18,256 nucleotides of DNA from a virus (IMGVR_UViG_2778261299_000001:1-18256); one strand, 5' to 3'; shown: positions 1 to 15,611, numbered from the stretch's first letter. A program made the numbers and translations. Notes: generated by a model from the sequence alone, not told the origin.

Positions 1-13
1 CATTCCTATCAAT

Positions 14-790
14 TTGGAGGAATTACGCTCTTATAATAAAGAAGCTATGGAGTTAAAAGAAAAGATTAATAAATCAATGTTTAATCTTAGTGTCTTAGAA
101 GAAAAAGGACGTGATATTTTAGATAAAATGACACAACAAAATGTCGAAGCAGCAAAATATCTAGAAATGTGTGAGCAGGCTATTAGAGCATCGACATCTA
201 AAGGTTTAGCCGGTGCTTTTGAAATCAAGGCTAATAAATTAAATAATAGTATCCAACTATGGGTTTTGGGATTGGCAAGTGCACTGGCGACGGGGGGGTA
301 CGTGGGTTTTGAAAGGCTCAAGGTTTTATCTGATGTGCTAAACAATGCAAATCCAAATGCAGTAGTTATTGTTACTCAGTTACTTCTTTCAGTGTTCAGT
401 ATAGGAGCTCCGTTATGGTTTGCATGGCTCTCTACAAAACAAATAAATCAAAGATTTAAATTGGCAGAGGATTATGCTTTTAAGGCTTCAGTAGCGAAGG
501 CTTACGAAGGCTATCGAAATGAAGCAAGTAAGGTATCTAATGGAGAATTTGAAAGGCGTTTATTTGATTCGGCATTGAGTCGTCTCGAAGAAGCACCTTT
601 GCGCTTTGTGAAGGATGATGACCATGCAACCCCTTGGAATGAGTTGTTAAATTCAAAAGCATTCAATAAGTTCCTTGACGCTTCTGTTGAAAATGTGAAT
701 TTTGTTAAAGGGATTATTAGCAAGAAAACAGGTGGGGCGAGAATGGCTAGTAATGATTCAGCTATTATTCCAGAAAAAAAAGTTGAATGA
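14..790 (+). CDS. hypothetical two-transmembrane-helix protein; candidate accessory, defence or superinfection-exclusion effector; true start uncertain and possibly upstream of window
   Basis: ORF of 258 codons ending at TAA 788-790. The frame is open from position 2, so the listed TTG at 14 is only the first possible start; the first ATG is at 47. Translation shows a charged, helix-prone N-terminal part, two hydrophobic segments (LWVLGLASALATGGYVGF and AVVIVTQLLLSVFSIGAPLWFAWL) separated by a short polar loop, then a charged C-terminal tail. AT-rich codon usage unlike the phage backbone. No motif I can assign to a known family. Confidence 0.6.
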   Translation: MEELRSYNKEAMELKEKINKSMFNLSVLEEKGRDILDKMTQQNVEAAKYLEMCEQAIRASTSKGLAGAFEIKANKLNNSIQLWVLGLASALATGGYVGFERLKVLSDVLNNANPNAVVIVTQLLLSVFSIGAPLWFAWLSTKQINQRFKLAEDYAFKASVAKAYEGYRNEASKVSNGEFERRLFDSALSRLEEAPLRFVKDDDHATPWNELLNSKAFNKFLDASVENVNFVKGIISKKTGGARMASNDSAIIPEKKVE

Positions 791-873
791 CAGAAGGATA
801 ATAATTAAGGGATGTCAGTCAACATGGTAATTTCTTGGTGTTGATTGTTTTATTTATCAAAAACATTTTAAGT

Positions 874-907
874 TAGTCTGATCTTCGCGTTCGGTAGGAT
901 CAGACTA
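874..907. terminator. perfect 10-bp inverted repeat (tagtctgatc ... gatcagacta) with 14-nt loop between the convergent cargo gene and Q; possible bidirectional terminator
   Basis: Read directly: 874-883 is the exact reverse complement of 898-907. On the minus strand a U-rich run (UGUUUUUG) follows a few nt after the stem. There is no clean U-tract on the plus side, so the terminator call is tentative. Confidence 0.3.
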
Positions 908-947
908 CTAAATTAACGATATGATTTCATTGATTACGAATGGTTAA

Positions 948-2018
948 TTAAGTTGTAGGGATAGTAATCGAAAGATTACTATCTTCAATACCTAGTTTAT
1001 AAGGCTCAAACATAATTACTTTTTCTCCAAGCCACTCGTTAAGCTCTGTCATTCGTTTTTGTAGCGGGGTCAACTCATTGCGCACAAAGACTTTACTAGC
1101 TTTACCTGCATCTCCAAAACCGCCGATGTTCTGGGGAATTATCCCCATCATTTGCGGCGGTACGCGGTGTGCCGCCATCATGTCATCCCGACTCACGTTT
1201 TTGATGTTCAAAAACTCATCCTTCGCCGCCACCTCTGACAACGGGATGATCTGAAGCCCGTCCTTTTTGCCGTTAGGCGAGTACATAAACAGGTTGCGGA
1301 AGTTGCCAGGGCCTTTGGCGCTTTTCATCGCATTGCGGAGGTTGTTCACATCCTCCTGGTTCTGCGCGGCATCGGTCATGTACATGATGAAGCCTGCATG
1401 ACTGCCGTTAATGTAATACTTCCGGCGGAACAGCGTGGCGGACTCGTTGAGCAGGGCTGACGGAATGGCAGAAAGATAACCGGGCAGGCCGTAGATCTCC
1501 TGGTTGATGTCCGGTTCCATCAGATGAAAGATGCTGCCTTTCGTGAACTGATATGGCTGCGTGGTCATACCGTATTGCACAAACCAGTAGGTATCCAGGT
1601 CTAACCCGCGTCGGGTGTATTTTGCCAGGGCAGGTTCAAGGGCGATAACTTCACCGAAGCGGTTCGTGCGTTTCTCCAGGTAGGCGTTACCAAATACCAG
1701 ATAGTCCTGCACAAAACGTGAAAAAGCCTGCTGGCTGAGCAGCGGGTGAGGGATGTAGGTACTGGTCAGAATGTTGCATTTTACTGCAATCGGGGAGCTG
1801 TGATGCACGGCAGCGCGGAAGGTGCGTGCCAGTCCGTCAAAACTGACGGGTGGCTCATACCAGCGATCCGTCTGTACGCATTCCACATAGTCCAGCAGTT
1901 CGCGGCGGTCCAGTACAGGAATGGGATCACCAAAGCTGAAAGCTTCGGCTGAAGTTTGATTTTTATGCTGGCTCTGTTTCGTCGCCGCAGCGCGGTTTTT
2001 CTTACTCTTTCCCATCAA
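948..2018 (-). CDS. Q: phage portal (capsid portal vertex) protein, P2 gpQ-like
   Basis: 356-codon ORF on the minus strand, immediately downstream of and overlapping the large terminase gene (P stop and Q start overlap at 2015-2018), as in P2. Size close to P2 gpQ. The 3' ~100 nt are AT-rich. Confidence 0.85.
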   Translation of the reverse strand: MMGKSKKNRAAATKQSQHKNQTSAEAFSFGDPIPVLDRRELLDYVECVQTDRWYEPPVSFDGLARTFRAAVHHSSPIAVKCNILTSTYIPHPLLSQQAFSRFVQDYLVFGNAYLEKRTNRFGEVIALEPALAKYTRRGLDLDTYWFVQYGMTTQPYQFTKGSIFHLMEPDINQEIYGLPGYLSAIPSALLNESATLFRRKYYINGSHAGFIMYMTDAAQNQEDVNNLRNAMKSAKGPGNFRNLFMYSPNGKKDGLQIIPLSEVAAKDEFLNIKNVSRDDMMAAHRVPPQMMGIIPQNIGGFGDAGKASKVFVRNELTPLQKRMTELNEWLGEKVIMFEPYKLGIEDSNLSITIPTT

Positions 2019-3781
2019 AAAATCTCCACAATATTGCTGGTATTGGCGGACTCGCCCTGCAGCGGTTCGTTAAACAGTGCGTGCATTGTTGCCCAGGCCA
2101 GATCGGCGTGGCTGGCTTCTTCGCTGCGGCTGGCTTCATAGGTCGGGCGGTTGCCGCTGGCGGTGGTGGCGCGACGGATAGCCATGAATGACTGCGCAAT
2201 GTCGGTGTGCCCGGCGTCAAACTCCAGACGGCGGTGGCTGATAATGTCGTAGGCCTTGAGTACCAGGGCGTTTTTAACGTTGGGGTTGTAGACAAACTCC
2301 CGGACGGCAGGAAAAAACGCTTTCACGTTCTCGTAAACCCCGTGACCAACGCCGGTTGAGTCGATACCGATATAGGTCACGTTGTACTGTTCGGTCAGTT
2401 TTTTGATGGCGTCAGCCTGGGCGCGGAAGTCCATCCCGCGCCACTGGTGACGCTCAAGAATGCGGAACTTACCACCCGGCACGGCTGGCGGTGCCACCAC
2501 CACGCATCCGGCGCTGTCGCCGTTTTGCGTGCCTTTTGCCGGGTCATAACCGATCCACACTTCGCGCCAGCCAAACGGGCGCAGCGCCAGTGCATGAAAG
2601 TCGGTCCAGACTTCCCAACTGTCCACCATGCACGCCTGCAGCTCGCTGAGCGGAAACACGGACGCGAGATCGTCCACAAACTCGCACATCAGCAGGTTCT
2701 GGTATTCGTCCGGGCTGTACTCCATGCGTAGCTGGTCGAGGTCGAACAGGTTACAGCCGCCGCGCACCGCATCTTCCACGGTGACTATCTGGCGGTATTG
2801 CCCGTCTGCGCACAGCAGGCCGGGGGCCAGATTGCTGTGGGACAGGTCGATGTCCACCTTATCGGCTTTGTTGCGCCCACGGTTGAACAGCGCACCGGAC
2901 CAGAACGGATAAGCACTGTGTGTCAGACTGGATGGCGTGGAAAAATAGGTTTGTCGCCATTTTTTGTGAATAGCCATACCGGAAGCCACTTTGCGCAGCT
3001 CCTGGAATTTTGGTATCCAGAAATATTCATCCAGATACAGGTTGCCGTGATAACTCTGGGCCGTGCGGGCATTGGTGCCGAGGAAATACAGTGTGGCCCC
3101 GTTGGGAAGCACCATCGGATCGCCTTTCAGCTCCACCTCTACTTCTTTGGCAAAGTCGATGATGTACTGTTTGAATACGTGGGCCTGTGCCTTACTGGCA
3201 GAAAGGAAAATCTGGTTACGTCCGGTCAGCAGGGCGTCAATCAGGGCTTCACGGGCAAAATAGAAGGTCGCGCCGATCTGGCGTGACTTCAGCAGGTTGC
3301 GGATGCGGTTGGTTTTTCCGGCTTCCCACCAGTGGCGCTGGTAGTTGAACATGGAGGAATGGAAGATTTCTTCCAGCTTCTCAATCTGTTCATCGGTGAA
3401 AACATTCTTTTCCGGCTGACGGCGTGGGCCTTTGTTGCGGTTGGCGACGTTAGGGTTTAAGTCGGCTTCGTTGCCACCATTGTTAAACTTGCCGATCCGC
3501 GCGTGGCGTTCCGACTGGCGCGCCAGCAGGTCAATCTCTTTGAAATCTTTCCCTTCTTTGTGCTCCTTCATAATGAGCTGGCAATAGCGTGCGGCGGTGG
3601 TGAGCTGCATCTGATCCAGCGGCCCATAATCACCCCACTTGTCGCGTTTTTTCCAGCTGTGAACAGTTGCAACTTTCTCGCCCAGCATTTCAGCAATGCG
3701 GGCTACGCGGTATCCCTGAAAGTACAGCAGCATGGCCTGCCGACGGGGATCGAGATCTGCGGGTGTCAGTGTGGTGTTCAT
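2015..3781 (-). CDS. P: terminase large (ATPase) subunit, P2 gpP-like
   Basis: 588-codon ORF, divergent from O across a 142-bp promoter region. Size and position match P2 gpP. Confidence 0.9.
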   Translation of the reverse strand: MNTTLTPADLDPRRQAMLLYFQGYRVARIAEMLGEKVATVHSWKKRDKWGDYGPLDQMQLTTAARYCQLIMKEHKEGKDFKEIDLLARQSERHARIGKFNNGGNEADLNPNVANRNKGPRRQPEKNVFTDEQIEKLEEIFHSSMFNYQRHWWEAGKTNRIRNLLKSRQIGATFYFAREALIDALLTGRNQIFLSASKAQAHVFKQYIIDFAKEVEVELKGDPMVLPNGATLYFLGTNARTAQSYHGNLYLDEYFWIPKFQELRKVASGMAIHKKWRQTYFSTPSSLTHSAYPFWSGALFNRGRNKADKVDIDLSHSNLAPGLLCADGQYRQIVTVEDAVRGGCNLFDLDQLRMEYSPDEYQNLLMCEFVDDLASVFPLSELQACMVDSWEVWTDFHALALRPFGWREVWIGYDPAKGTQNGDSAGCVVVAPPAVPGGKFRILERHQWRGMDFRAQADAIKKLTEQYNVTYIGIDSTGVGHGVYENVKAFFPAVREFVYNPNVKNALVLKAYDIISHRRLEFDAGHTDIAQSFMAIRRATTASGNRPTYEASRSEEASHADLAWATMHALFNEPLQGESANTSNIVEIF

Positions 3782-3827
3782 GGCACAAACCTACAGCCTT
3801 GAATGAAGGCTTTCCCCGCCTGCGGTT

Positions 3828-3845
3828 TGTGTGGTTGTCGGTACA
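3828..3845. promoter_or_regulatory. TGT-N12-ACA dyad (Ogr/Delta-type activator box) of the late promoter upstream of O, in the divergent P/O control region
   Basis: Read directly: TGT at 3828-3830, 12 nt, ACA at 3843-3845. A -10-like CATAAG lies about 40 nt downstream (3884-3889) and the O start codon is at 3924. P2 late promoters carry this dyad centred near -55. Confidence 0.6.
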
Positions 3846-3923
3846 AATACCGCGCATTGTTTCACTGCCCCCATCACCGCAACCATAAGGCTCCAGTAAG
3901 TTTTTTCTAACGGAGCACGGCTC

Positions 3924-4757
3924 ATGACAGTGAAAGCAAAGCGTTTTCGCATCGGGGTGGAAGGTGCCACTACCGACGGACGCGAAATCCAGCGTGAATG
4001 GTTGGAACAGATGGCAGCCAGCTACAACCCGGCGGTGTATACCGCGCTGATTAACCTTGAGCACATCAAGTCTTATCTGCCGGACAGCACCTTTAACCGC
4101 TACGGCAAGGTGACGGCGCTGTTTGCTGAAGAAATCACGGAAGGTCCGCTGGCAGGCAAGATGGCGCTGTATGCCGACGTTGAGCCAACGGAGTCCCTGG
4201 TGGAACTGGTGAAAAAAGGCCAGAAATTATTCACCTCTATGGAAGTCAGCCCGAAGTTCGCTGATACGGGCAAAGCCTACCTGGTTGGCCTGGCTGCCAC
4301 TGATGATCCTGCCAGTCTGGGTACGGAAATGCTGACATTCAGCGCCAGTGCAGCCCATAACCCGCTGGCAAACCGCAAGCAGAATCCCGCCAATCTTTTT
4401 ACCGCTGCAGAGGAAACGGTGATCGAACTGGAAGAAGTCCAGGATGACAAACCGTCCCTGTTTGCCCGCGTCACGGCGTTGTTTACCAAAAAAGAGCAGT
4501 CCGATGACGCCCGGTTCGCTGATGTGCATAAGGCCGTGGAGCTGGTCGCCACTGAGCAGCAGAACCTGAGCGCACGCACCGAAAAATCCCTGTCTGAGCA
4601 GGAAGAACGCCTGTCTGAACTGGAGACTGCTCTGCAGGAGCAGCAAACCGCCTTTAACGAACTGGTGAATAAGTTGAGTCATGAAGACAGCCGCCAGGAC
4701 TACCGCCAGCGTGCAACAGGCGGTAACGCCCCCGCTGACACTCTGACCAATTGCTGA
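3924..4757 (+). CDS. O: capsid scaffolding protein, P2 gpO-like
   Basis: 277-codon ORF, first gene of the rightward head operon. GGAG 10 nt upstream of the ATG. N-terminal RFRIGVEGATTDGREI resembles the P2 gpO N-terminus as I recall it. Acidic, helix-rich C-terminal half typical of scaffolds. Confidence 0.8.
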   Translation: MTVKAKRFRIGVEGATTDGREIQREWLEQMAASYNPAVYTALINLEHIKSYLPDSTFNRYGKVTALFAEEITEGPLAGKMALYADVEPTESLVELVKKGQKLFTSMEVSPKFADTGKAYLVGLAATDDPASLGTEMLTFSASAAHNPLANRKQNPANLFTAAEETVIELEEVQDDKPSLFARVTALFTKKEQSDDARFADVHKAVELVATEQQNLSARTEKSLSEQEERLSELETALQEQQTAFNELVNKLSHEDSRQDYRQRATGGNAPADTLTNC

Positions 4758-4773
4758 TGGAGCACAAAACCTG

Positions 4774-5832
4774 ATGAAGAAGAATACCCGCTTTGCTTTT
4801 AACGCTTACCTGCAGCAGCTGGCGCGTCTGAACGGTGTGGCAGTTGAAGAACTGTCCAGCAAGTTCACCGTGGAGCCGTCTGTACAGCAGACGCTGGAAG
4901 ACCAGATCCAGCAGTCTGCCGCTTTCCTGACGCTGATTAACGTCACGCCAGTGACTGAGCAGTCCGGTCAGCTGCTGGGGTTGGGTGTTGGTAGCACCAT
5001 TGCCGGAACCACTGACACCACCGCGAAAGAGCGTGAACCTGTCGATCCTACGCTGATGGTCGATGTGGAATACAAATGCGAGCAGACCAACTTTGACACG
5101 GTACTGACCTACGCGAAGCTGGACCTGTGGGCGAAGTTTCAGGATTTCCAGGTGCGTATCCGTGACGCCATCGTGAAACGTCAGGCACTGGACCGCATCA
5201 TGATCGGCTTTAACGGCGTGAAGCGTGCGAAAACCTCCAACCGTAGCGAAAACCCGCTGCTGCAGGATGTGAACAAAGGCTGGCTGCAGAAAATCCGTGA
5301 GGATGCACCGGATCATGTCATGGGCAGCACCACCACGGGCGGTGAAACCACACCGGGCGCGGTGAAAGTCGGGAAAGGTGGCGAATATGCCAACCTGGAC
5401 GCCGTGGTGATGGATGCCGTCAATGAGCTTATCGACGTGGTCTACCAGGACGATGACGATCTGGTGGTGATTTGCGGCCGTGAACTGCTGTCTGACAAGT
5501 ATTTCCCGCTGGTCAACAAAGAGCAGGAAAACAGTGAAAAACTGGCTGCCGATATGATCATCAGTCAGAAGCGCATGGGGGGCCTGCAGGCCGTGCGTGC
5601 GCCGTTTTTCCCGCCGAATGCGCTGCTGATCACCCGTCTGGACAACCTGTCCATCTACTGGCAGGAAGACACCCGCCGCCGTTCAGTTATCGACAACCCG
5701 AAACGTGACCGGATTGAAAACTTTGAATCCGTTAACGAAGCCTATGTGGTTGAGGACTACCGCTGCGCAGCACTGGTGGAAAACATCCAGATTGGCGACT
5801 TCAGCGCCGTCGCAGTAGAAACCGGAGCGTAA
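4774..5832 (+). CDS. N: major capsid protein, P2 gpN-like
   Basis: 352-codon ORF directly after O; size and position match P2 gpN. Confidence 0.85.
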   Translation: MKKNTRFAFNAYLQQLARLNGVAVEELSSKFTVEPSVQQTLEDQIQQSAAFLTLINVTPVTEQSGQLLGLGVGSTIAGTTDTTAKEREPVDPTLMVDVEYKCEQTNFDTVLTYAKLDLWAKFQDFQVRIRDAIVKRQALDRIMIGFNGVKRAKTSNRSENPLLQDVNKGWLQKIREDAPDHVMGSTTTGGETTPGAVKVGKGGEYANLDAVVMDAVNELIDVVYQDDDDLVVICGRELLSDKYFPLVNKEQENSEKLAADMIISQKRMGGLQAVRAPFFPPNALLITRLDNLSIYWQEDTRRRSVIDNPKRDRIENFESVNEAYVVEDYRCAALVENIQIGDFSAVAVETGA

Positions 5833-5835
5833 TCC

Positions 5836-6486
5836 ATGAGCCTGAGTCCCGCACGGCAGCATCGCCTGCGCGTTCAGGCTGAACAGGCCGCCCGCGAGGG
5901 CGGCAGCGTTCGCCACGCGTCGGGCTATGACCTGATGCTGCTGCAACTGGCGGAAGACCGCCGCCGTCTCAAGGGCGTTCAGTCCACGGTCAAAAAAGCG
6001 GAAATCAAGGTGGAGCTGCTGCCGAAGTACGCCGCCTGGGCTGAGGGTGTACTGGCTGCCGGAGGCGCTCAACAGGATGACGTGCTGATGTACGTGATGC
6101 TGTGGCGCATTGATGCCGGAGATTATGCCGGGGCGCTGGAGATCGGGCGTCATGCCCTGCGTCATGGCTGGGTGATGCCGCTGGGTAACCGCAACGTGCA
6201 GACCGTGCTGGCAGAGGAAATGGCAGACGCTGCGCAGAGCGCAATGCTTGCCACTACCGGCTTTGATGCCGATCTGTTGCTGCAGACGCTGGAGCTGACA
6301 GACGGTCTGGATATGCCGGACCAGTCACGGGCGCGTCTGCATAAAGCGATTGGCACTGTCCTGAGTGAAAGTAATCCGGCTTCCGCCCTTAATCATCTCA
6401 ACCATGCGTTACAGCTCGATCCCCGCTGTGGCGTGAAAAAAGACAAACAGCAGCTGGAGCGCAGATTGCGCAATGACAGTCGCTGA
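5836..6486 (+). CDS. M: terminase small (endonuclease) subunit, P2 gpM-like
   Basis: 216-codon ORF starting 4 nt after the N stop. Arginine-rich N-terminus. Position matches P2 M. Confidence 0.75.
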   Translation: MSLSPARQHRLRVQAEQAAREGGSVRHASGYDLMLLQLAEDRRRLKGVQSTVKKAEIKVELLPKYAAWAEGVLAAGGAQQDDVLMYVMLWRIDAGDYAGALEIGRHALRHGWVMPLGNRNVQTVLAEEMADAAQSAMLATTGFDADLLLQTLELTDGLDMPDQSRARLHKAIGTVLSESNPASALNHLNHALQLDPRCGVKKDKQQLERRLRNDSR

Positions 6487-6581
6487 CAGAACGTGCCCCC
6501 GCGCACGGGCGGCACGGGGTGGCGAAAGGCACCGCCACATCAAAACCTCGTCCACCGCCCTCTATTTCAGGAGAAAGCAGC

Positions 6582-7046
6582 ATGAAGTTTGTTGCGCCAG
6601 AACAGGCACCGGAACAGGCGGAAATCATCAGAAATACGCCGTTCTGGCCTGATGTGGACCTGTCGGAGTTTCGCAGCGTGATGCGCACTGACGGCACGGT
6701 GACGCAGCCGCGTTTAAAGCAGGTTGCCCTGTCGGCAATTTCGGAGGTCAACGCAGAGCTGTATGAGTTTCGCAGACGCCAGCAGATGCTGGGGTATGCC
6801 TCGCTGGCAGAAGTTCCGGCGGAACAGCTGGACGGCAAAAGTGAGCGCATTCAGCACTATTTCAACGCGGTTTACTGCTGGGCACGCGCCATGCTCAATG
6901 AGCGTTATCAGGACTATGACGCCACAGCGTCTGGTGTGAAGCGAGGCGAGGAACTGGCGGAAGCAAGCGGTGATTTGTGGCGTGACGCCCGCTGGGCCAT
7001 CAGCCGGGTGCAGGATGCGCCGCACTGCACAGTGGAGCTTATCTGA
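6582..7046 (+). CDS. L: head completion/stabilisation protein, P2 gpL-like
   Basis: ORF in the L position. I prefer the ATG at 6582 (MKFVAPEQ...) because AGGAGA lies 8 nt upstream; an upstream GTG at 6519 is possible but sits inside GC-rich hairpins. Confidence 0.7.
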   Translation: MKFVAPEQAPEQAEIIRNTPFWPDVDLSEFRSVMRTDGTVTQPRLKQVALSAISEVNAELYEFRRRQQMLGYASLAEVPAEQLDGKSERIQHYFNAVYCWARAMLNERYQDYDATASGVKRGEELAEASGDLWRDARWAISRVQDAPHCTVELI

Positions 7047-7249
7047 TGAAAGTGCGTGCGTATCAGTATGACACGGTGGACGCGCTTTGCTGGCGTCATT
7101 ACGGGCGCACGCAGGGTGTCACGGAGCAGGTACTGAAGGCAAATCCGGGGCTTGCCGAATACGGCCCCTTTTTACCTCACGGGCTGCAGGTGGAGCTGCC
7201 GGACATACCGACAACCACCACCGTGCAGACCGTCCAGCTATGGGACTGA
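7046..7249 (+). CDS. X: tail protein X (small LysM-like virion protein), P2 gpX-like
   Basis: 67-codon ORF whose start overlaps the L stop (ATGA at 7043-7048). Size and position match P2 gpX. Confidence 0.7.
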   Translation: MKVRAYQYDTVDALCWRHYGRTQGVTEQVLKANPGLAEYGPFLPHGLQVELPDIPTTTTVQTVQLWD

Positions 7250-7252
7250 ATT

Positions 7253-7468
7253 ATGACGCTTGAGCGAATCAGCGCCTTTATCACGTACTGCATCGCCGTT
7301 GTCCTGGCCTGGCTGGGCGATTTGTCCATCAAGGATGCCTCAACGCTGGGCGGCCTGATGATTGGTGTGCTGATGCTGGCTATCAACTGGTACTACAAAC
7401 ACAAAGCCTACCAGCTTCTGCGCGACGGGCAGATCTCGCGGGAGGACTATGAATCCATCAATCGTTAA
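7253..7468 (+). CDS. small class II holin (pinholin-like)
   Basis: 71-codon ORF with two hydrophobic segments (ISAFITYCIAVVLAWLG and LGGLMIGVLMLAINWYY) and a charged C-terminal tail, immediately upstream of the endolysin gene. Shorter than the P2 Y holin as I recall it. Confidence 0.6.
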   Translation: MTLERISAFITYCIAVVLAWLGDLSIKDASTLGGLMIGVLMLAINWYYKHKAYQLLRDGQISREDYESINR

Positions 7469-7961
7469 ACGCTGCCTTGTCGGGACCGTGCTGGCTATTG
7501 CTGCCACGCTGCCGGGTTTTCAGCAGCTTCACACCTCCGTGGAGGGGCTGAAACTGATTGCCGATTACGAAGGCTGTCGTCTGCAGCCGTATCAGTGCAG
7601 CGCGGGTGTATGGACTGACGGCATTGGTAATACATCTGGCGTCATTCCCGGCAAAACCATTACGGAACGACAGGCAGCAGAAGGGCTTATCTCCAACGTG
7701 CTGCGTGTGGAGCGGTCACTGGAAAGGTGTGTGAAGCAACAGCCACCGCAGAAAGTGTATGACGCGGTGGTGTCATTTGCCTTCAACGTGGGGACAGGTA
7801 ATGCCTGCAGCTCCACGCTGGTGAAATTACTCAATCAGCGGCGCTGGGCGGATGCGTGCCGACAGTTGCCGCGCTGGGTTTATGTGAAAGGTGTGTTTAA
7901 TCAGGGGCTGGATAACCGCCGTGCGCGGGAGATGGCCTGGTGCTTACAGGGAGCAAACTGA
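7449..7961 (+). CDS. K: endolysin, lysozyme-like muramidase with N-terminal signal-anchor-release (SAR) segment
   Basis: 170-codon ORF. The N-terminus has a weakly hydrophobic Gly/Ala-rich stretch (LVGTVLAIAATLPG) followed by a lysozyme-like motif (DYEG..L.PY....GVWTDGIGNT) resembling T4/P1/P21 lysozymes. Confidence 0.8.
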   Translation: MNPSIVKRCLVGTVLAIAATLPGFQQLHTSVEGLKLIADYEGCRLQPYQCSAGVWTDGIGNTSGVIPGKTITERQAAEGLISNVLRVERSLERCVKQQPPQKVYDAVVSFAFNVGTGNACSSTLVKLLNQRRWADACRQLPRWVYVKGVFNQGLDNRRAREMAWCLQGAN

Positions 7962-7962
7962 A

Positions 7963-8340
7963 ATGAAAAAGAAATTAATCAGCGGGCTGTTTCTGATGTT
8001 ATGGATGGCGCTGTTAATCGAAGCAATGGTGTATCCGCAGGGGATTTTTCCGGTACTGGCAGCGTCCGGCGTTTGGGTAGCCTGTTTGCTGACATGGGCG
8101 GTAATTCCGGTAGCACTGGCTGCGTTAATTAAGAATGGCCCGCTCTGGCAGGAGTTGAGGGCATCTTTGCTGAAGACAATTACCCGAAAAGAAAACGTAT
8201 TTATCAGCTGGATGATGCGATTGCTGATTGTCGTCAGTCTCGCCTGGACGGGGTGGGCTATTACCCTGGTCTTTTATCTACTGACCGTTATTGCCTTCTG
8301 GATCACCCGTAATCAGATGGCTCAACAGGTAGCAGCATGA
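7963..8340 (+). CDS. lysA: LysA-like membrane protein (lysis timing accessory)
   Basis: ATG at 7963 with AGGGAG 9 nt upstream. Polytopic hydrophobic protein in the lysA position. Confidence 0.55.
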   Translation: MKKKLISGLFLMLWMALLIEAMVYPQGIFPVLAASGVWVACLLTWAVIPVALAALIKNGPLWQELRASLLKTITRKENVFISWMMRLLIVVSLAWTGWAITLVFYLLTVIAFWITRNQMAQQVAA

Positions 8341-8765
8341 ACCGGTTGCTGCTGGTTGTGCTGGCGTTATTACTGGCGGCGCTGGGCTGGCAGACGTGGC
8401 GGCTGGCTGATGCCAGCCAGACCATCAGCACGCAGGCAGACGAGCTGCAGAGCAAAAGCCAGGCACTGGCAAAGAGCAACAGCCAGCTTATCAGCCTGTC
8501 CATTCTGACTGAAACCAATAACCGGGAGCAGGCGCGGCTCTATGCCGAAGCAGAACAGACCAGCGCGCTGCTGAGACAACGACAACACCGGATCGAGGAA
8601 CTGAAACGTGAGAACGAGGATTTACGTCGCTGGGCTGATACTCCTTTGCCTGCTGACATTATCCGGCTGCGGGAACGTCCGGCACTCACCGGAGGTACGG
8701 CTTACCGTCAGTGGTTGTCCGCGAGTGACGCCGTGTCGGCTGGATCAGGCAACGCCGCGCACTAA
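8337..8765 (+). CDS. lysB: LysB, Rz-like inner-membrane spanin
   Basis: 142-codon ORF whose start overlaps the lysA stop. N-terminal TM segment (LLLVVLALLLAALGW), then coiled-coil-like charged region. Confidence 0.6.
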   Translation: MNRLLLVVLALLLAALGWQTWRLADASQTISTQADELQSKSQALAKSNSQLISLSILTETNNREQARLYAEAEQTSALLRQRQHRIEELKRENEDLRRWADTPLPADIIRLRERPALTGGTAYRQWLSASDAVSAGSGNAAH

Positions 8766-8898
8766 TGGTGATCTGAACGCGTTGCTGGATGAAACGGAGG
8801 CTGCCTGGGCGGTCTGTGCAGACAAAGTGGACATGATTATTGCGTGTCAGGAGCGAAACAGTGAACAAACCACAATCCCTGCGCCACGCCCTCAATAA
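8608..8898 (+). CDS. lysC: LysC, Rz1-like outer-membrane lipoprotein spanin, embedded in and extending past lysB in another frame
   Basis: ORF in a different frame from lysB with a lipoprotein-type signal and lipobox (LLCLLTLSG-C). GTG start at 8608 is a guess; the real start may be further downstream. Confidence 0.45.
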   Translation: MRTRIYVAGLILLCLLTLSGCGNVRHSPEVRLTVSGCPRVTPCRLDQATPRTNGDLNALLDETEAAWAVCADKVDMIIACQERNSEQTTIPAPRPQ

Positions 8899-9292
8899 AG
8901 CGGTGCCTTATGTCCGCAATAACCCGGACAAACTGCATCTGTTTGTGGATAACGGTTCGCTGGTTGCCACGGGGGCCAGCTCCATGTCGTGGGAGTACCG
9001 TTACACCCTGAACGCGGTGATTGAGGATTTCAGCGGCGACCAGAATCTGCTGATGGCCCCGGTTTTGCTGTGGCTGAGGGATAACCAGCCCGATGCCATC
9101 AATAACCCGGCGTTACGGGAAAAACTATTCACCTTTGAGGTGGATATTCTGCGCAACGATGTCTGTGATATCAGCCTGAACCTGCAACTGACGGAGCGTG
9201 TGCTGGTCAGCACTGACGGCAGTGTGTCGAGCGTTGAAGCTGTAGCGGAACCTGATGAACCTGAAGAAATGTGGACGGTGAAACGTGGCTGA
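8861..9292 (+). CDS. R: tail completion protein, P2 gpR-like
   Basis: ORF in the R position. I prefer GTG 8861 (VNKPQSLRHAL...) because AGGAG lies 7 nt upstream; the ORF track start at 8840 is a TTG. Confidence 0.7.
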   Translation: MNKPQSLRHALNKAVPYVRNNPDKLHLFVDNGSLVATGASSMSWEYRYTLNAVIEDFSGDQNLLMAPVLLWLRDNQPDAINNPALREKLFTFEVDILRNDVCDISLNLQLTERVLVSTDGSVSSVEAVAEPDEPEEMWTVKRG

Positions 9293-9731
9293 ACTGCAGA
9301 AAGTGGACGACTGGCTGAGTGCCTTGCTGGCGAATCTGGAACCAGCCGCAAGAAGCCGCATGATGCGCCAGCTGGCGCAGGAACTGCGCCGGACACAGCA
9401 GCAGAATATCAGAATGCAGCGCAATCCAGATGGCAGCAGTTATGAACCTCGACGGGTAACAGCACGCAGTAAAAAGGGGCGCATCAAACGTCAGATGTTT
9501 GCAAAGCTGCGCACCACAAAATACCTGAAAACTGCCGCCAGCGCCGACTCTGCCAGCGTACAGTTTGAAGGCAAAGTGCAGCGTATTGCCCGTGTTCACC
9601 ATTACGGCCTGCGTGATCGCGTCAGTCGCAAAGGACCGGAGGTCCGTTACGCAGAGCGCCGCCTGCTGGGTGTAAATGATGATGTTGAGGCAATGACCCG
9701 CGACATGATTCTGCAATGGCTGGCGGGGTGA
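9285..9731 (+). CDS. S: tail completion / virion morphogenesis protein, P2 gpS-like
   Basis: 148-codon ORF with GTG start overlapping the R stop. Size and position match P2 gpS. Confidence 0.7.
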   Translation: MAELQKVDDWLSALLANLEPAARSRMMRQLAQELRRTQQQNIRMQRNPDGSSYEPRRVTARSKKGRIKRQMFAKLRTTKYLKTAASADSASVQFEGKVQRIARVHHYGLRDRVSRKGPEVRYAERRLLGVNDDVEAMTRDMILQWLAG

Positions 9732-9735
9732 TCTT

Positions 9736-9753
9736 TGTATCAGCACTGATACA
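9736..9753. promoter_or_regulatory. TGT-N12-ACA dyad (Ogr-type box) of the late promoter upstream of V
   Basis: Read directly: TGT 9736-9738, 12 nt, ACA 9751-9753, in the 68-bp S-V intergenic gap. Spacing to the V start codon (9800) is short, so the exact transcription start is uncertain. Confidence 0.5.
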
Positions 9754-9799
9754 AGTTGCAGCACTGCCGCCTTTCTTCCCCTGATGGCAACCTTTCCCT

Positions 9800-10378
9800 A
9801 TGAACGCACAATTAACCGAAATCATGCGCCTTATCACCAACCTGATTCGCACAGGGGTAGTCACCGAAGTGGACAGGGAAAACTGGCTTTGCCGGGTGAA
9901 AACGGGCGAGCTTGAAACCAACTGGATTAGCTGGCTGACGCTGCGTGCCGGGAATGCCCGCACATGGTGGCGACCATCGGAAGGTGAGCAGGTGGTGCTG
10001 CTGAGTCTGGGCGGCAATCTGGAAACCGCCTTTGCGCTGCCCGCTGTCTATTCGAATCAGTTCGCACCACCGTCGACGTCGGCGGACGCCTGCGTGACAG
10101 AACATCCTGACGGTGGCTGGTTTGAATACGAACCCGCCACCGGGCGCTGGTATGTCAGGGGCATCAAATCAATGGTCATTGAGGCCGCTGACAACATCAC
10201 CATGAAAACCAGTGAGTTTGTACTGGAGGCTGACCGCACGCGCATTAACAGCGAAGTGGTGATCAATGGTGGCGTTACCCAGGGCGGCGGAGCGATGAGT
10301 TCTAACGGGATCGTGGTTGATGCGCATCAGCATACTGGCGTCCTGAAAGGCGGCGATACAACCGGAGGCCCGGTATGA
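9800..10378 (+). CDS. V: baseplate spike/assembly protein, P2 gpV-like
   Basis: 192-codon ORF, first gene after the S-V promoter gap. Gly-rich C-terminus typical of gpV-like spikes. Confidence 0.8.
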   Translation: MNAQLTEIMRLITNLIRTGVVTEVDRENWLCRVKTGELETNWISWLTLRAGNARTWWRPSEGEQVVLLSLGGNLETAFALPAVYSNQFAPPSTSADACVTEHPDGGWFEYEPATGRWYVRGIKSMVIEAADNITMKTSEFVLEADRTRINSEVVINGGVTQGGGAMSSNGIVVDAHQHTGVLKGGDTTGGPV

Positions 10379-10734
10379 CGCTTTATAGCGGGATGAACAA
10401 TACCAGCGGTAAAGCCATTACTGATATTGACCATCTGCGTCAGTCGGTGCGGGACATTCTACTGACACCGCAGGGTAGCCGCATTGCCCGTCGTGAATAT
10501 GGTTCCCTGCTGTCGACACTGATAGACCAGCCACAAAATCCGGCATTACGCCTGCAGGTCATGTCGGCAGTGTATGTGGCGCTGAGTCGCTGGGAGCCAC
10601 GGCTGACGCTGGATTCCATCACCATTAAAAGCAATTTTGACGGTTCAATGGTGGTGGGGCTGACCGGGCGGCGTAATAACGGTGTGCCTGTTTCCCTTTC
10701 CGTATCAACAGGAGCAGAGAATGGCAGTGATTGA
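10375..10734 (+). CDS. W: baseplate wedge protein, P2 gpW-like
   Basis: 119-codon ORF overlapping the V stop (ATGA). Size and position match P2 gpW. Confidence 0.8.
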   Translation: MTLYSGMNNTSGKAITDIDHLRQSVRDILLTPQGSRIARREYGSLLSTLIDQPQNPALRLQVMSAVYVALSRWEPRLTLDSITIKSNFDGSMVVGLTGRRNNGVPVSLSVSTGAENGSD

Positions 10735-11629
10735 CCTTTCGCAGTTGCCTGCGCCGCAGATTGTGGATGTGCCGGACTTTGAGACGCTGCTTGCCGAACG
10801 CAAGGCAGAATTTGTGGCGCTTCATCCGAAAGATGAGCAGGAAGCAGTAATGCGTACGCTGGAGCTTGAATCTGAACCCGTCACCAAATTGCTGCAGGAG
10901 AACGCTTACCGTGAGTTGCTTCTGCGCCAGCGCATTAACGAAGCCGCGCAGGCTGTGATGGTGGCTTACGCGATGGGCGGCGATCTTGACCAGCTCGCTG
11001 CCAACTACAACGTGACACGCCTGACGGTGACGCCTGCTGATAATGATGCTGTGCCGCCCGTTGCAGCTGTGATGGAAAGCGATGAAGCGTTACGCCTGCG
11101 TGTGCCTGCAGCCTTTGAAGGGCTTTCTGTTGCGGGGCCAACTGCAGCTTATGAATTTCATGCCCGAAGCGCCGACGGTCGGGTGGCGGATGCCAGTGCA
11201 ACCAGCCCGGCACCTGCAGAGGTGGTACTGACTGTCCTGAGTCGTGAAGGCGACGGAACAGCAGAAAAAGACTTGCTGGATGTGGTGGAGAAAGCCCTGA
11301 ACAGTGAGAACGTCCGCCCGGTGGCTGACCGTCTGACGGTTCGCAGCGCAGAAATCATCCCGTACCGTGTGGAAGCTACCATTTTTCTTTATCCGGGACC
11401 GGAAGCAGAGCCGGTAATGGCAGCGGCAAAAGTCAGCCTGCAGAGGTACATCGCCAGTCAGACGCGGCTGGGTCGGGATATTCGCCGTAGCGCCATTTTT
11501 GCCGCCCTGCATGTTGAGGGTGTGCAGCGTGTGGAACTGGCTTCTCCGCTGGCGGATGTGGTCCTGAACAAAACACAGGCGGCATCATGTACGCAGTGGA
11601 GCGTAACCAACGGAGGAACGGATGAATAG
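10721..11629 (+). CDS. J: baseplate assembly protein, P2 gpJ-like
   Basis: ATG at 10721 with AGGAG 6 nt upstream gives 302 codons, matching P2 gpJ length as I recall it. The ORF track start at 10682 is a GTG. Confidence 0.85.
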   Translation: MAVIDLSQLPAPQIVDVPDFETLLAERKAEFVALHPKDEQEAVMRTLELESEPVTKLLQENAYRELLLRQRINEAAQAVMVAYAMGGDLDQLAANYNVTRLTVTPADNDAVPPVAAVMESDEALRLRVPAAFEGLSVAGPTAAYEFHARSADGRVADASATSPAPAEVVLTVLSREGDGTAEKDLLDVVEKALNSENVRPVADRLTVRSAEIIPYRVEATIFLYPGPEAEPVMAAAKVSLQRYIASQTRLGRDIRRSAIFAALHVEGVQRVELASPLADVVLNKTQAASCTQWSVTNGGTDE

Positions 11630-12227
11630 TCTGCTGCCACCGGGTTCAACGCCACTGGAGCGCCGACTGGCACAAACCTGCAGCGGGATTTCTGATTTGC
11701 AGGTGCCGCTACGTGACTTGTGGAATCCGGCGACCTGTCCGGTCAGTTTCCTGCCTTATCTCGCCTGGGCGTTCTCTGTGGATCGCTGGGACGAGGGCTG
11801 GACAGAAAGCGTCAAGCGCCAGGTGGTGAAGGATGCTTTTTATATTCATCAGCATAAAGGAACCACCAGTGCCGTGCGGCGGGTGGTGGAGCCGTTCGGC
11901 TTCCTGATCCGCATTATTGAGTGGTGGCAGACCGGAGAAACACCGGGCACGTTTCGCCTGGATATCGGCGTGCAGGACCAGGGCATCACTGAAGATACCT
12001 ATCTGGAACTTGAGCGACTGATAAGCGATGCCAAACCATGTAGCCGTCACATGATCGGCATGTCTATCAATCTGCAGACCAGCGGCCCGCATTGGGTGGG
12101 AGCCGCCAGCTATCTTGGCGAAGAAATCACGATCTATCCGTATATCAACGAAACAATTATTTCCGGCGGCACCGCGCATGAAGGCGGGGCGGTCCATGTT
12201 ATTGACACAATGAGAGTGAATCCATGA
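11622..12227 (+). CDS. I: baseplate/tail protein, P2 gpI-like
   Basis: 201-codon ORF overlapping the J stop, followed directly by H. Confidence 0.75.
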   Translation: MNSLLPPGSTPLERRLAQTCSGISDLQVPLRDLWNPATCPVSFLPYLAWAFSVDRWDEGWTESVKRQVVKDAFYIHQHKGTTSAVRRVVEPFGFLIRIIEWWQTGETPGTFRLDIGVQDQGITEDTYLELERLISDAKPCSRHMIGMSINLQTSGPHWVGAASYLGEEITIYPYINETIISGGTAHEGGAVHVIDTMRVNP

Positions 12228-13810
12228 GCACAAAATTTTATACCCTGCTGACGGATATTGGCGCGGCGAAACTTGCCAGCGCCGCCGCGCTCGGTGTGCC
12301 TTTAAAAATTACCCATATGGCAGTCGGCGATGGCGGCGGAATATTGCCAACGCCGGACGCAAAGCAGACAGCACTGGTAAATGAGAAACGCCGGGCTGCG
12401 CTGAATATGCTCTATATCGACCCGCAGAACAGCAGCCAGATTATTGCCGAACAGGTGATCCCTGAAAATGAGGGCGGTTGGTGGATCCGTGAAGTGGGCC
12501 TGTTTGATGAGTCCGGGGCATTGATTGCCGTGGGTAACTGCCCGGAAAGCTATAAGCCGCAACTGGCTGAAGGCAGCGGGCGTACCCAGACCGTGCGCAT
12601 GGTGCTGATTACCAGCAGCACGGACAATATCACCCTGAAAATCGACCCTGCCGTCGTGCTGGCAACCCGCAAGTATGTGGATGACAAGGTACTGGAGCTG
12701 AAGGTGTACGTGGATGACCTGATGGCAAAACATCTTATCGCACAGGACCCACATTCACAGTACGCGCCAAAAGCCAGCCCGACATTTAGCGGAACCCCCA
12801 AAGCGCCAACGCCAGCGGCGGGGAATAATACCACGCAGGTTGCGACCACTGCGTTTGTACAGGCGGCACTGACGGCCCTTATTAATGGTGCGCCAGCCAC
12901 GCTGGACACGTTGAAAGAAATAGCCGCAGCCATTAACAATGATCCGAATTTCAGTACCACCATTAACAATGCGCTGGCACTGAAAGCACCGTTGTCGAGT
13001 CCGGCACTCACCGGAACGCCAACAGCCCCCACGGCGGCGCAGTCGGTCAACAATACACAGATTGCCACTACGGCTTTTGTGAAATCGGCGATTGCAGGAA
13101 TGGTGGGTTCTGCACCTGCTGCACTGGATACACTGAACGAACTGGCGGCGGCACTGGGAAATGATCCGAACTTTGCCACGACAATGCTTAATGCGCTGGC
13201 AGGTAAACAACCGCTGGACAATACGCTTACCAATTTGAGTGGAAAGGATGTGGCTGGTCTTCTCGCATACCTTGGTTTGGGAGAAGGCTCAGCATTACCT
13301 GTTGGGGTGCCTGTTCCGTGGCCTTCAGCCACTCCGCCAACAGGCTGGCTGAAATGCAATGGTGCGGCTTTTTCTGCTGAAGAATACCCGGAACTGGCAA
13401 AGGCTTACCCGACAAATAAATTGCCTGATTTACGCGGTGAATTTATTCGTGGATGGGATGATGGGCGCGGGGTGGATGCGGGGCGAGCCTTGTTAAGTCT
13501 TCAGGATGACTCTTTTGAAGCTCACAGACATGAGTCCTTTTTTTACGCGGGTATTTCACGCAATGAAACACCATTAAAAAATCTTCCAAGTTCAGACGAG
13601 ATGCTGACTTTAAGTTCCACAACTAATGCCTTGTCCCCGGACAGTATTGATGCCACCAATTCGTTAATTGGTAATGATGATTACAACTGTCTGATTGAAG
13701 GAAATAAAAATAACAAACGAACGGCAACGGGGTTGAGTACCAGTATTGTCGGTGCAGCAGAGACACGCCCACGTAATATTTCATTTAATTACATTGTGAG
13801 GGCTGCATGA
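12224..13810 (+). CDS. H: tail fibre protein, P2 gpH-like, with conserved N-terminal part, internal repeats and a C-terminal collar-like receptor-binding tip in the current orientation
   Basis: 528-codon ORF. Two diverged copies of an ~55-aa motif in the middle. C-terminal segment (WLKCNGAAFSAEEYPELAKAYP..LPDLRGEFIRGWDDGRGVDAGR...H.H) resembles phage tail-collar domains. An invertase crossover site lies inside the gene at 13260-13285. Confidence 0.85.
   Translation: MSTKFYTLLTDIGAAKLASAAALGVPLKITHMAVGDGGGILPTPDAKQTALVNEKRRAALNMLYIDPQNSSQIIAEQVIPENEGGWWIREVGLFDESGALIAVGNCPESYKPQLAEGSGRTQTVRMVLITSSTDNITLKIDPAVVLATRKYVDDKVLELKVYVDDLMAKHLIAQDPHSQYAPKASPTFSGTPKAPTPAAGNNTTQVATTAFVQAALTALINGAPATLDTLKEIAAAINNDPNFSTTINNALALKAPLSSPALTGTPTAPTAAQSVNNTQIATTAFVKSAIAGMVGSAPAALDTLNELAAALGNDPNFATTMLNALAGKQPLDNTLTNLSGKDVAGLLAYLGLGEGSALPVGVPVPWPSATPPTGWLKCNGAAFSAEEYPELAKAYPTNKLPDLRGEFIRGWDDGRGVDAGRALLSLQDDSFEAHRHESFFYAGISRNETPLKNLPSSDEMLTLSSTTNALSPDSIDATNSLIGNDDYNCLIEGNKNNKRTATGLSTSIVGAAETRPRNISFNYIVRAA
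13260..13285. repeat. left 26-bp invertase crossover site (gix/hix-like), inside H at the constant/variable boundary
   Basis: TTCTCGCATACC-TT-GGTTTGGGAGAA is an imperfect palindrome of two 12-bp half-sites of the type TTCTC..AAACC around a central TT. Its right half is the exact reverse complement of the left half of the site at 14898-14923. Confidence 0.75.
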
Positions 13811-14415
13811 TGTATAACGCTATCTTAAATAATAAATTTATTGCCACAAAGGCAGGAGAGATTACCGTTTATAACTATGACAGTGAGACACGGGAGTATA
13901 TTTCTGCATCAATTGAATATCTTGCTGTGGGTGTCGGTATCCCCGCATATTCCTGTTTAGATGCTCCTGGCACACATAAGGCTGGTTATGCAATCTGCCG
14001 TTCTGCAGATTTTAACTCATGGGAATATGTGCCAGACCATCGCGGTGAAATCGTCTTTAGCACCGAAACAGGAGAATCAAAAGAAATCACAGCTCCGGGT
14101 GATTACCCTGATAATACAACCACTATCGCCCCGTTAACACCATACGATAAATGGGATGGTGAGAAATGGGTGACGGATACCGAGGCACAGCATAGCGCCG
14201 CAGTAGATGCAGCAGAAGCACAACGCCAGTCGCTGATTGATACTGCAATGGCTTCCATCAGTCTGATTCAACTGAAATTACAGGCCGGACGGAATCTGAC
14301 GCAGGCAGAAACCAGCCGACTTAACACGGTGCTGGATTACATTGACGCGGTGACGGCAACAGATACCAGCACCGCGCCTGATATTATTTGGCCTGTATTC
14401 CCTGAGACTGATTAA
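13807..14415 (+). CDS. G: tail fibre assembly chaperone (Tfa; P2 gpG / Mu U-like)
   Basis: 202-codon ORF overlapping the H stop (ATGA). C-terminus TDTSTAPDIIWPVFPETD closely resembles the conserved C-terminus of lambda Tfa as I recall it. Confidence 0.85.
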   Translation: MMYNAILNNKFIATKAGEITVYNYDSETREYISASIEYLAVGVGIPAYSCLDAPGTHKAGYAICRSADFNSWEYVPDHRGEIVFSTETGESKEITAPGDYPDNTTTIAPLTPYDKWDGEKWVTDTEAQHSAAVDAAEAQRQSLIDTAMASISLIQLKLQAGRNLTQAETSRLNTVLDYIDAVTATDTSTAPDIIWPVFPETD

Positions 14416-14644
14416 CCTCAATTAGTATTGGTTCGCCTTTCTCATTAATTGTTAGCTCCATGCCCTGAGGAATTTCTGTCATAGTAAAAAACCAATTGTC
14501 CTCCGGTAATTCAATAGCCCCGGTCACGTCATGAAGACCGGGGATTACTTCAGTCAAAGTAACTGGATTAAACAGGCGCACAATAAACCCTCCAGGAAAA
14601 AGCATTTGATGATGGTCTGCCGTCGTACATCTGGCAGCGGGCAT
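14384..14644 (-). CDS. possible alternative tail-fibre assembly chaperone (G'-like) or decayed remnant
   Basis: Only minus-strand ORF between the G stop and the alternative fibre-tip cassette. At 86 codons or fewer it is short, none of its candidate ATGs has a convincing ribosome-binding site, and it lacks the Tfa C-terminal motif seen in G. Confidence 0.3.
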   Translation of the reverse strand: MPAARCTTADHHQMLFPGGFIVRLFNPVTLTEVIPGLHDVTGAIELPEDNWFFTMTEIPQGMELTINEKGEPILIEVNQSQGIQAK

Positions 14645-14897
14645 AAAAGCCGGTATTTGTTACCTGATCATCCACGATCATTGAAACGTGAACATTATTA
14701 GGTGTGCTCTCGTAATCCGTTCTTATTCTTTCCGCGATACTGATAAAACGTGAAAGTTTAGGCAGTGCAATTGGGTAAACAACTTTAGCCAGTCCATTAT
14801 CATTAGATCCACCGGTTCCAAATACTTCTATTGCACCATCTGACCAGCGTATCCATGCACCATTGGCATTAGCTCCTCGCTGAATGACATATCTGGC
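14568..14897 (-). CDS. promoterless alternative tail-fibre C-terminal cassette (H'v); expressed only after inversion, as an in-frame fusion to the constant part of H
   Basis: The minus-strand frame runs through the right crossover site encoding GLGE, the same residues and frame as LGLGE at the left site in H. After inversion H would continue as ...GLGEARYVIQRGANANGAWIRW... for about 108 codons to the stop at 14568-14570. Confidence 0.65.
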   Translation of the reverse strand, partial: ARYVIQRGANANGAWIRWSDGAIEVFGTGGSNDNGLAKVVYPIALPKLSRFISIAERIRTDYESTPNNVHVSMIVDDQVTNTGFYARCQMYDGRPSSNAFSWRVYCAPV

Positions 14898-14923
14898 TTC
14901 TCCCAAACCAACGTTTATGAAAA
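14898..14923. repeat. right 26-bp invertase crossover site (gix/hix-like), just upstream of the invertase gene
   Basis: TTCTCCCAAACC-AA-CGTTTATGAAAA. The left half-site is an exact 12/12 reverse-complement match to 13274-13285, and the central dinucleotide is inverted relative to the left site. Confidence 0.75.
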
Positions 14924-14978
14924 TGCAGAGATAATGGCTAACTGGCATCATCCACGGTTTTTATTCAGGGGATTGATC

Positions 14979-15545
14979 ATGCTTATTGGCTATGTACGCG
15001 TGTCAACAAATGACCAGAACACCGATTTGCAACGTAATGCACTGAACTGCGCGGGATGTGAGCGGATTTTTGAGGATAAAATCAGTGGCACTAAGTCCGA
15101 CAGACCGGGGCTTAAAAAACTGTTCAGGACACTATCGGCAGGAGACACTCTGGTTGTCTGGAAGCTGGACAGGTTGGGGCGCAGTATGCGGCATCTTGTT
15201 ACGCTGATAGAAGAGTTGCGTCAGCGTGGCGTGAATTTCCGAAGCCTGACTGACAGTATTGATACCAGCACCCCAATGGGCCGTTTCTTTTTTCATGTCA
15301 TGGGGGCCCTGGCTGAAATGGAACGCGAACTGATAGTTGAACGTACCATGGCAGGGCTGGCTGCAGCTCGTGCCAAAGGCAGAGTAGGTGGACGCCGTCC
15401 TAAGTTGACCACCGAACAGTGGGCACAGATTGGGCGTTTACTCGAGGCCGGAGAATCAAGACAGCGTATTGCACTGATTTTTGATGTAGGCGTTTCTACC
15501 ATTTATAGAAAATTTCCGGCAAATAAGAGCAATGAATCCCCCTGA
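14979..15545 (+). CDS. serine-recombinase DNA invertase of the Gin/Hin/Pin/Cin family
   Basis: ATG at 14979 with AGGGGA 7 nt upstream. N-terminus MLIGYVRVSTNDQNTDLQ carries the catalytic serine motif of this family. Near-colinear with e14 Pin, Mu Gin and Hin as I recall them, including the C-terminal helix-turn-helix (GVSTIYRKF). Confidence 0.9.
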   Translation: MLIGYVRVSTNDQNTDLQRNALNCAGCERIFEDKISGTKSDRPGLKKLFRTLSAGDTLVVWKLDRLGRSMRHLVTLIEELRQRGVNFRSLTDSIDTSTPMGRFFFHVMGALAEMERELIVERTMAGLAAARAKGRVGGRRPKLTTEQWAQIGRLLEAGESRQRIALIFDVGVSTIYRKFPANKSNESP

Positions 15546-15593
15546 ATCAGCATTATTTTGATTATCCCTGCAAGTAGACAAATACCGTCATTT

Positions 15594-15611
15594 TGTGTGA
15601 ATAACGACACA
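15594..15611. promoter_or_regulatory. TGT-N12-ACA dyad (Ogr-type box) of the late promoter upstream of FI
   Basis: Read directly: TGT 15594-15596, 12 nt, ACA 15609-15611. A -10-like CATAGG lies about 40 nt downstream; AGGAGG is 9 nt before the FI start at 15688. Confidence 0.6.

Follow-up and report, generated by a model that had tools for sequence, protein, structure and literature searches.

In phage P2 the cohesive-end site, cos, occupies positions 1-19, the terminator tQ lies at 160-181 and the stop of the portal gene Q at 187, and the interval has a GC content of 62%. Phage 186 is arranged like P2: in both phages cos is found 168-177 bp from the stop of the portal gene (Q or W), in GC-rich DNA with tQ or tW in between. 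A sequence-only reading of the DNA analysed here, an 18,256-nt stretch of viral DNA (IMGVR_UViG_2778261299_000001, hereafter the window), had described the P2 cos as GC-rich and close to Q, which agrees with these coordinates. The Q tails of P2 and 186 have a normal GC content, unlike the Q tail of the window, and the old/tin genes of P2 lie across cos from Q, unlike the window's cargo gene.

The region between A and Q is known as a cos-adjacent variable hotspot, the old/tin or 'TO' region (Rousset et al. 2022, PMC9122126; NAR 2026, PMC13586616), which is also treated in the iLund4u preprint (10.1101/2024.10.15.618418) and is a reservoir of anti-phage systems (PMC9122126). The window carries the same hotspot: it lies between A and Q, next to cos, is AT-rich and hypervariable amid conserved synteny, and, like the window's slot, it is rich in unannotated single-gene cargos. 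The hotspot papers treat A-Q as one unit bounded by whole genes, whereas here we find two slots, the Q-side limit being inside the Q coding sequence; neither the two-slot split nor a cassette limit within Q is stated in the hotspot literature searched (including PMC9122126 and PMC13586616). The locus is thus an ordinary member of a known hotspot, and its sharp cassette limits and strict tail-cargo linkage are a modest refinement, the linkage likewise not being described in the papers searched.

The interval between cosL and Q/W has been described as a hotspot of foreign-gene insertion since the 1990s (Dodd & Egan 1996 and Nakayama 1999, as cited in PMC5694545; PMC9122126). The examples named in PMC5694545 are retrons Ec67/Ec86 in 186-related prophages (Dodd & Egan 1996), phiCTX (Nakayama 1999) and ORF1-4 of the Ralstonia phage phiRSY1, and a 55-bp cos core is cited in PMC5694545 and PMC9122126. 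As in the window, these insertions place foreign genes between the left cohesive end and the portal with phage function kept, and cos is upstream of the cargo. Going by the title of the 1996 paper by Dodd and Egan, the retron reportedly replaces the DNA between cos and a transcription terminator; the portal gene would then be untouched, because the replaced DNA runs from cos to the terminator, whereas the tract replaced in the window takes in the last ~40-65 codons of the portal gene.

Fels-2, SopEPhi and RE-2010 (Felsduovirus) and Cartapus (Elveevirus) have the cos island described below in common with the window's relatives (90-97% identity over ~150 bp), as well as the order DinI - slot - cos - slot - Q. 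Their cos-Q intervals are AT-rich and 0.8-1.9 kb long, and their Q tails are AT-enriched. Each has its own cargo and Q tail, unlike those of the window; a DUF4145 gene lies between cos and portal in Cartapus and the gene of an AIPR protein in RE-2010, and the cargo of the window, a protein of 431 aa, was absent from all phages of the phage collection. Encapsidated, DNase-protected Cartapus genomes were measured by virome sequencing and qPCR, although the virion titre was low, no plaques were seen and there was no plating host (PMC9928086).

Composition of the locus and position of cos

The window covers the late-gene arm of a P2-like prophage from E. coli that belongs to the Fels-2/Cartapus type. 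The features of its left end are collected in Table 1.

Table 1. Features at the left end of the window, in positions counted from its first nucleotide
Feature	Position	Strand	Remark
3' part of the cargo gene (263 codons of a 431-aa gene)	1..790	+	ORF open at the window edge
Cargo stop codon (TGA)	788-790	+	
Convergent intergenic spacer between cargo and Q, 157 bp, 31% GC, cos-free, part of the cargo cassette	791..947	.	
Hairpin with a 9-bp perfect stem (875-883 / 898-906), candidate bidirectional terminator	872..909	.	
Portal gene Q, whole CDS	948-2015	-	
Q stop codon (TAA)	948-950	-	
Q stop and 14-codon C-terminal extension GIEDSNLSITIPTT (951-992)	948..992	-	missing in most relatives
Cassette-linked 3' segment of Q, ~64 codons, divergent and AT-enriched	948..1140	-	change point, 1:1 clusters
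Conserved Q body (PF04860), 53% GC, 90-97% identity among relatives	1141..2015	-	
Terminase large subunit gene P, 588 aa, intact	2015..3781	-	PF06056, PF03237, PF17289

The GC fraction of the spacer (0.312) is lower than that of every 157-nt window of 1051-18256 (minimum 0.338). In the final 30 codons of Q (948-1040) the GC fraction is 0.323, a value that ranks with the lowest 0.1% of all other 93-nt windows, as compared to 0.527 in the rest of the gene; GC3 is 0.13-0.18 in the last 26 codons versus ~0.64 in the Q body. The AT-rich spacer and AT-rich Q end pointed out in the sequence-only reading were thus confirmed both in their coordinates and in their composition. The drop along Q is gradual, with intermediate GC3 values (0.33-0.47) in codons 301-330.

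A search of the whole window for the 19-mers of P2 and of the Fels-2 type, with up to 3 mismatches allowed, found neither, which bears out the earlier remark that no cos lies between the cargo and Q. A Q protein identical over all 355 aa is present in 277 E. coli-annotated blocks of the assembly collection, and 10 contigs (L002-L011) were compared, one of which (L002) differs from window positions 1-12015 by 1 mismatch (99.99% identity). All 10 carry the same 431-aa cargo, convergent with Q, and in all of them the cos 19-mer GGCGTGGCGGGGATACGAG is located at the same place, ~205 bp upstream of the cargo ATG; a search upstream of the window, as had been suggested, is thereby answered in near-identical contigs. 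The 19-mer begins 1,657 bp from the Q stop, which corresponds to window positions of about -728..-710, i.e. to the left of the window, and its context is ...AAAGCGGGCA-GGCGTGGCGGGGATACGAG-CGCGCGC... It fits the P2-family GGCG(A/T)GGCGGGGA... type with flanks AAGCGGGCA and CGCGCGC, and is identical to the annotated cos of phage Cartapus. The cos cores of P2 and 186 are homologous to it (14/19 and 15/19 identical positions, respectively), with the flanks AAGCGGGC and GCGCGCT in common. Judging from the near-identical contigs, the prophage of the window appears to have retained its cos ~0.7 kb to the left of the window, and cleavage by the terminase at this 19-mer would give the virion ends.

The layout was compared among the 80 closest Q relatives in IMG/VR, whose Q is 90-100% identical over the aligned part. 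A cos core was detectable downstream of Q in 71 of the 80 loci, separated from the Q stop by 166-3,504 bp of intervening DNA with 32-42% GC. In 69 of the 71 loci cos is 0.5-3.5 kb from Q across AT-rich DNA, and only two are P2-like, with an interval of ~167 bp and 55% GC. The gene order in the group is A - DinI - (variable slot) - cos - (variable slot) - Q. The earlier suggestion that cos had been displaced upstream of the cargo is therefore right as to the position, which was seen in the 10 contigs, but not as to the displacement, since a cargo between cos and Q is standard in this group. The lack of a cos next to Q does not mark a prophage as defective, and in the annotation of Fels-2-type phages cos should be sought beyond the cargo.

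Linkage of the portal tail to the cargo

The body of Q has a GC fraction of 0.51-0.54 in all loci, and the tail (from VRNEL to the stop) one of 0.25-0.50, with a mean of 0.35. The GC content of the tail is correlated with that of the adjacent interval (Spearman 0.53), and the two P2-like loci have the GC-richest Q tails in the set. Along Q, the nucleotide identity averaged over pairs stays at 0.88-0.97 for the first ~900 nt and then drops to 0.74, 0.70, 0.62 and 0.53. Clustering of the 71 loci gave 46 cargo clusters and 46 tail clusters in a strict 1:1 pairing; as the loci are not phylogenetically independent, both this linkage and the GC correlation are descriptive and are not formal tests.

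The 1:1 pairing is not mere clonality, because the identities of body and tail are incongruent in same-cargo as well as in different-cargo pairs. Pairs with the same cargo (n=28) have tails that are 96-100% identical, and in 17 of the 28 the Q bodies are only 92-96% identical, i.e. as divergent as those of random pairs. Pairs with different cargos (n=2,250) have tails that are 48-86% identical, also in those cases in which the bodies are 97-99% identical, and body and tail identity are uncorrelated (rho 0.02). Two-segment change points across cassette pairs cluster at Q nt 906-923. In the window's Q the change point is at nt ~877 (window position ~1140) against 59 of 70 relatives, and identity falls there from ~0.94 to ~0.6. 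The change points and the body/tail incongruence support the earlier proposal of a recombination junction within the Q 3' end, yet it is deeper than was thought, ~64 codons from the stop and not ~30.

A more distant prophage (L101) carries in the same slot a cargo of 83% protein identity, beside a homologous extended tail (...MFEPYKLDIKDNNLAITAPVT). A related cargo next to a homologous tail means that tail and cargo have co-diverged. By these comparisons the AT-rich end of Q is inherited with the cargo and not with the Q body.

The portal itself shows signs of constraint. The window's Q has 355 aa versus 341-349 aa in most relatives, and the protein is 60% identical to P2 gpQ, 61% to 186 W and 94% to the Cartapus portal; it could be aligned nearly to the C-termini of gpQ and 186 W, and the gene carries a PF04860 record. 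P2, 186 and the window have the tail motif VRNELxPLQxRxxExNxWLxxxVIxFxxYxL in common, with all conserved positions kept, and dN/dS of the tail is ~0.06 (window versus L101). The portal should thus be functional and packaging normal, because the tail keeps a conserved motif under purifying selection. The 14-aa extension GIEDSNLSITIPTT, with a dN/dS of ~0.8 over very few sites, seems to be near-neutral and close to unconstrained; related C-terminal extensions are found in L101 and in a partial portal, P0032, whose tail is 75% identical to that of the window and lies beside an unrelated cargo. Diversifying selection on the Q tail was also considered and is ruled out by the dN/dS values. An AlphaFold model of Q from a shallow alignment has a pLDDT of 40, its sole confident part being a long helix (residues 303-329); no solved structure is related to Q by sequence, and a protein search with the 63-aa Q tail returned short fragments only.

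The AT-rich 3' end of Q might also be regarded as an unconstrained, fast-evolving tail that drifts in place, with no recombination junction at all. The almost neutral terminal extension of 14 aa (dN/dS ~0.8) would fit this picture, as would the fact that a single helix of the C-terminal region is all that could be modelled with any confidence. Drift in place, however, would not make the identity of tails independent of that of bodies, nor the tails of same-cargo pairs more alike than their bodies, and it leaves near-identical bodies with tails only 57-71% identical, as well as the abrupt drop of identity at clustered positions, without explanation. Moreover, purifying selection on the core of the tail is strong (dN/dS ~0.06), and the motif of P2 and 186 has been kept. 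We consider this reading to be very improbable.

A second possibility is that the portal tail and the cargo are functionally matched, i.e. held together by selection and not by linkage alone. The cargo could for instance act in defence by sensing portal tails that are foreign, or the tail could make the prophage's own portal immune to the cargo. The strict 1:1 pairing in 71 loci, the co-divergence of tail and cargo in L101 and the role of the slot as a known reservoir of anti-phage systems (PMC9122126) are all in line with such a relation. On the other hand, physical adjacency suffices for linkage, and cargo homologues also occur away from Q, namely in L103/L104, where the Z/fun slot is ~15 kb away from Q, and in L015, where the neighbour is a Toprim primase and no portal is near. 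In addition, the 75%-identical tail of P0032 stands beside an unrelated cargo, and selection on the tail is purifying, not diversifying. Functional matching is therefore very improbable in our view. In the similarly improbable event that the pairing is functional, the tail could be, for example, a self-marker or a target of the neighbouring defence gene, and not a hitch-hiking passenger.

The cos island and a proposed exchange of the cassette

The conserved DNA around cos was delimited by stacking one representative of each of the 46 cargo types on the cos core. Counted from the 19-mer's first base, it is near-invariant between -125 and +26 in these 46 representatives, i.e. over ~150 bp, which corresponds to L002 12719-12869 and to window positions of about -853..-703. 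On the Q side conservation drops to background 7 nt past the 19-mer, and the start of the cargo cassette is therefore very close to the cleavage site. The part of the island that faces away from Q holds TGCATGA/TCATGCA heptamers, at least five in number, together with a GC-rich hairpin, GCCCGCCAG/CTGGCGGGC; these are candidate binding sites of the small terminase subunit. A scan of the island returned no canonical signal.

Both sides of the island are variable. Between cos and Q there are 46 different contents in the 71 loci, with Q bodies that are 90-99% identical. The slot between DinI and cos (~12870-14190 in L002-L011) differs among prophages that share cargo and Q tail, and contains a pair of genes for 280-aa and 71-aa proteins, a DUF8087 gene or the gene of a 225-aa protein; the genes of this slot had no Pfam or PADLOC match at the thresholds used. 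As the genes on this side differ at constant cargo and Q tail, the island separates two independently assorting slots. The A-Q hotspot is, in other words, really two slots parted by a 150-bp invariant cos island. The sharp limits of the Q-side slot give precise homology arms for the mining and engineering of cassettes, and gene-level catalogues of hotspots will misjudge portal diversity.

These observations suggest the following account. The first letter of the window falls within the second slot's cargo gene, and the spacer beside Q is therefore cassette DNA. The cassette spans from 7 bp past the 19-nt cohesive end into the last ~40-65 codons of Q (~110-190 nt), reaching to about position 1140 in the window. 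We infer that cassettes are swapped by homologous recombination, probably between co-resident P2-like genomes, with one crossover in the cos island (~150 bp) or beyond and the other in the conserved Q body. Since the tails of different cassettes are only ~63% identical, no crossover would be able to part a tail from its cargo. The tail would then stay linked to the cargo without recombining, and may share its AT-rich composition for this reason. The clustered boundary would be set by the last well-conserved nucleotide block, the region coding for PPQMMG...GGFGD. The tail still encodes a conserved C-terminal helix-strand motif under purifying selection.

The tails of this clade differ among themselves as much as the window's Q differs from that of P2 or 186, and so they look like old alleles and not like the product of recent drift. 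With fixed limits, every cassette would therefore carry its own ancient allele of the portal C-terminus. The AT-richness of the tail could stem from AT-rich donors or from AT-biased drift, in place, of a segment that does not recombine. Taken as a whole, the account with cos on the far side of the cargo, a Q tail that forms part of the cassette, an exchange of cassettes through homologous recombination and normal packaging seems to us very likely to be correct.

A loss of cos, or its destruction when the cargo arrived, would make DNA packaging impossible, and the prophage had in fact been suspected of being packaging-defective; this is extremely improbable, since an 18-kb window without a cos-like 19-mer, a cos-to-Q interval unlike the model of P2 and 186, and a related contig that is a deletion remnant (L007) are outweighed by a cos island present in 10 of 10 contigs with the exact Q (one of which differs from the window at a single position in 12 kb) and invariant across 46 cargo types, by known phages with the same layout, and by intact reading frames of Q, P and the downstream late genes. 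The suspicion of a defect has to be given up: in the contigs a conserved, intact cos is found a short distance upstream of the cargo, and the C-terminus of Q, which is conserved among functional P2-like phages, has kept the P2/186 motif. The late and head genes Q, P, O, N, M and L have intact reading frames both in the window and in all contigs but one (9 of 10).

Individual copies of the prophage can nevertheless be defective, because L007 (GCA_023860985.1, 5739-8092) is a deleted remnant of the same prophage. It adjoins the host gene ybjL, has a truncated scaffold gene and lacks most genes from there to ogr; Q, cargo and cos are kept.

The cargo protein, the spacer hairpin and further variable sites

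The full coding sequence of the cargo extends from about -505 to 790 in window coordinates (L002 11226-12521, minus strand there) and has 37% GC. The protein has at least 1,494 homologues across Proteobacteria, and matched no Pfam, PADLOC or NCBIfam family. A megablast search of window positions 1-1100 against complete E. coli genomes gave no match, the cargo being absent from that set, and a contig scan with the cargo returned only two distant loci. The predicted model (pLDDT 72, pTM 0.33) is all-helical, with an N-terminal domain followed by a long helix (151-282), a region with only weak matches to families of coiled-coil type; a fold search of the PDB gave generic coiled coils and no meaningful match. 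Two hydrophobic segments, probably membrane-spanning, can be read from the sequence, and most invariant columns of the alignment fall in the C-terminal region.

Homologues of the cargo are found in several types of neighbourhood: in the cos-Q slot (L101), in the Z/fun slot, which is flanked by the tail-fibre-assembly gene and the sheath gene (L103/L104), beside a Toprim primase (L015), and next to Ogr, a degraded P2-like portal and a GNAT toxin-antitoxin pair (L016). By this recurrence in cargo slots it is plausible that the protein is a single-gene defence or abortive-infection protein. The family is widespread, uncharacterised and present in several slots of mobile elements, which makes it a reasonable defence candidate for future studies.

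The hairpin in the spacer is stable in folding (z = -2.7 for the plus strand) and is placed like tQ of P2 and tW of 186. A scan of the spacer with a terminator consensus found no canonical terminator, the hairpin being without a canonical U-run, and there was no Rfam match and no promoter enrichment in the spacer. By analogy with tQ and tW the hairpin may end the converging cargo and Q-P transcripts. The spacer is unconserved even beside the cargo of 83% protein identity in L101.

Variable sites were also seen elsewhere in the prophage. Downstream of the CI-type repressor (~20200-21068 in L002-L011) the same backbone carries different genes, namely SNIPE/T5orf172, a KAP NTPase, an OLD-like TOPRIM ATPase or DUF4747, or is followed by the integrase directly; this site looks like the third known P2 hotspot. 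In the window a serine invertase of the Gin/Cin type (14934-15545; PF00239 and HTH_7) follows the tail-fibre assembly gene and is adjoined by an oppositely oriented 127-aa ORF, and the segment 14568-15545 is probably an invertible tail-fibre segment. Finally, the GC content falls to ~40% at 13400-13900, where the tail-fibre gene (12224-13810) ends and the assembly gene begins. Like Q, the tail-fibre gene is a conserved gene with an AT-rich, probably exchanged 3' module.
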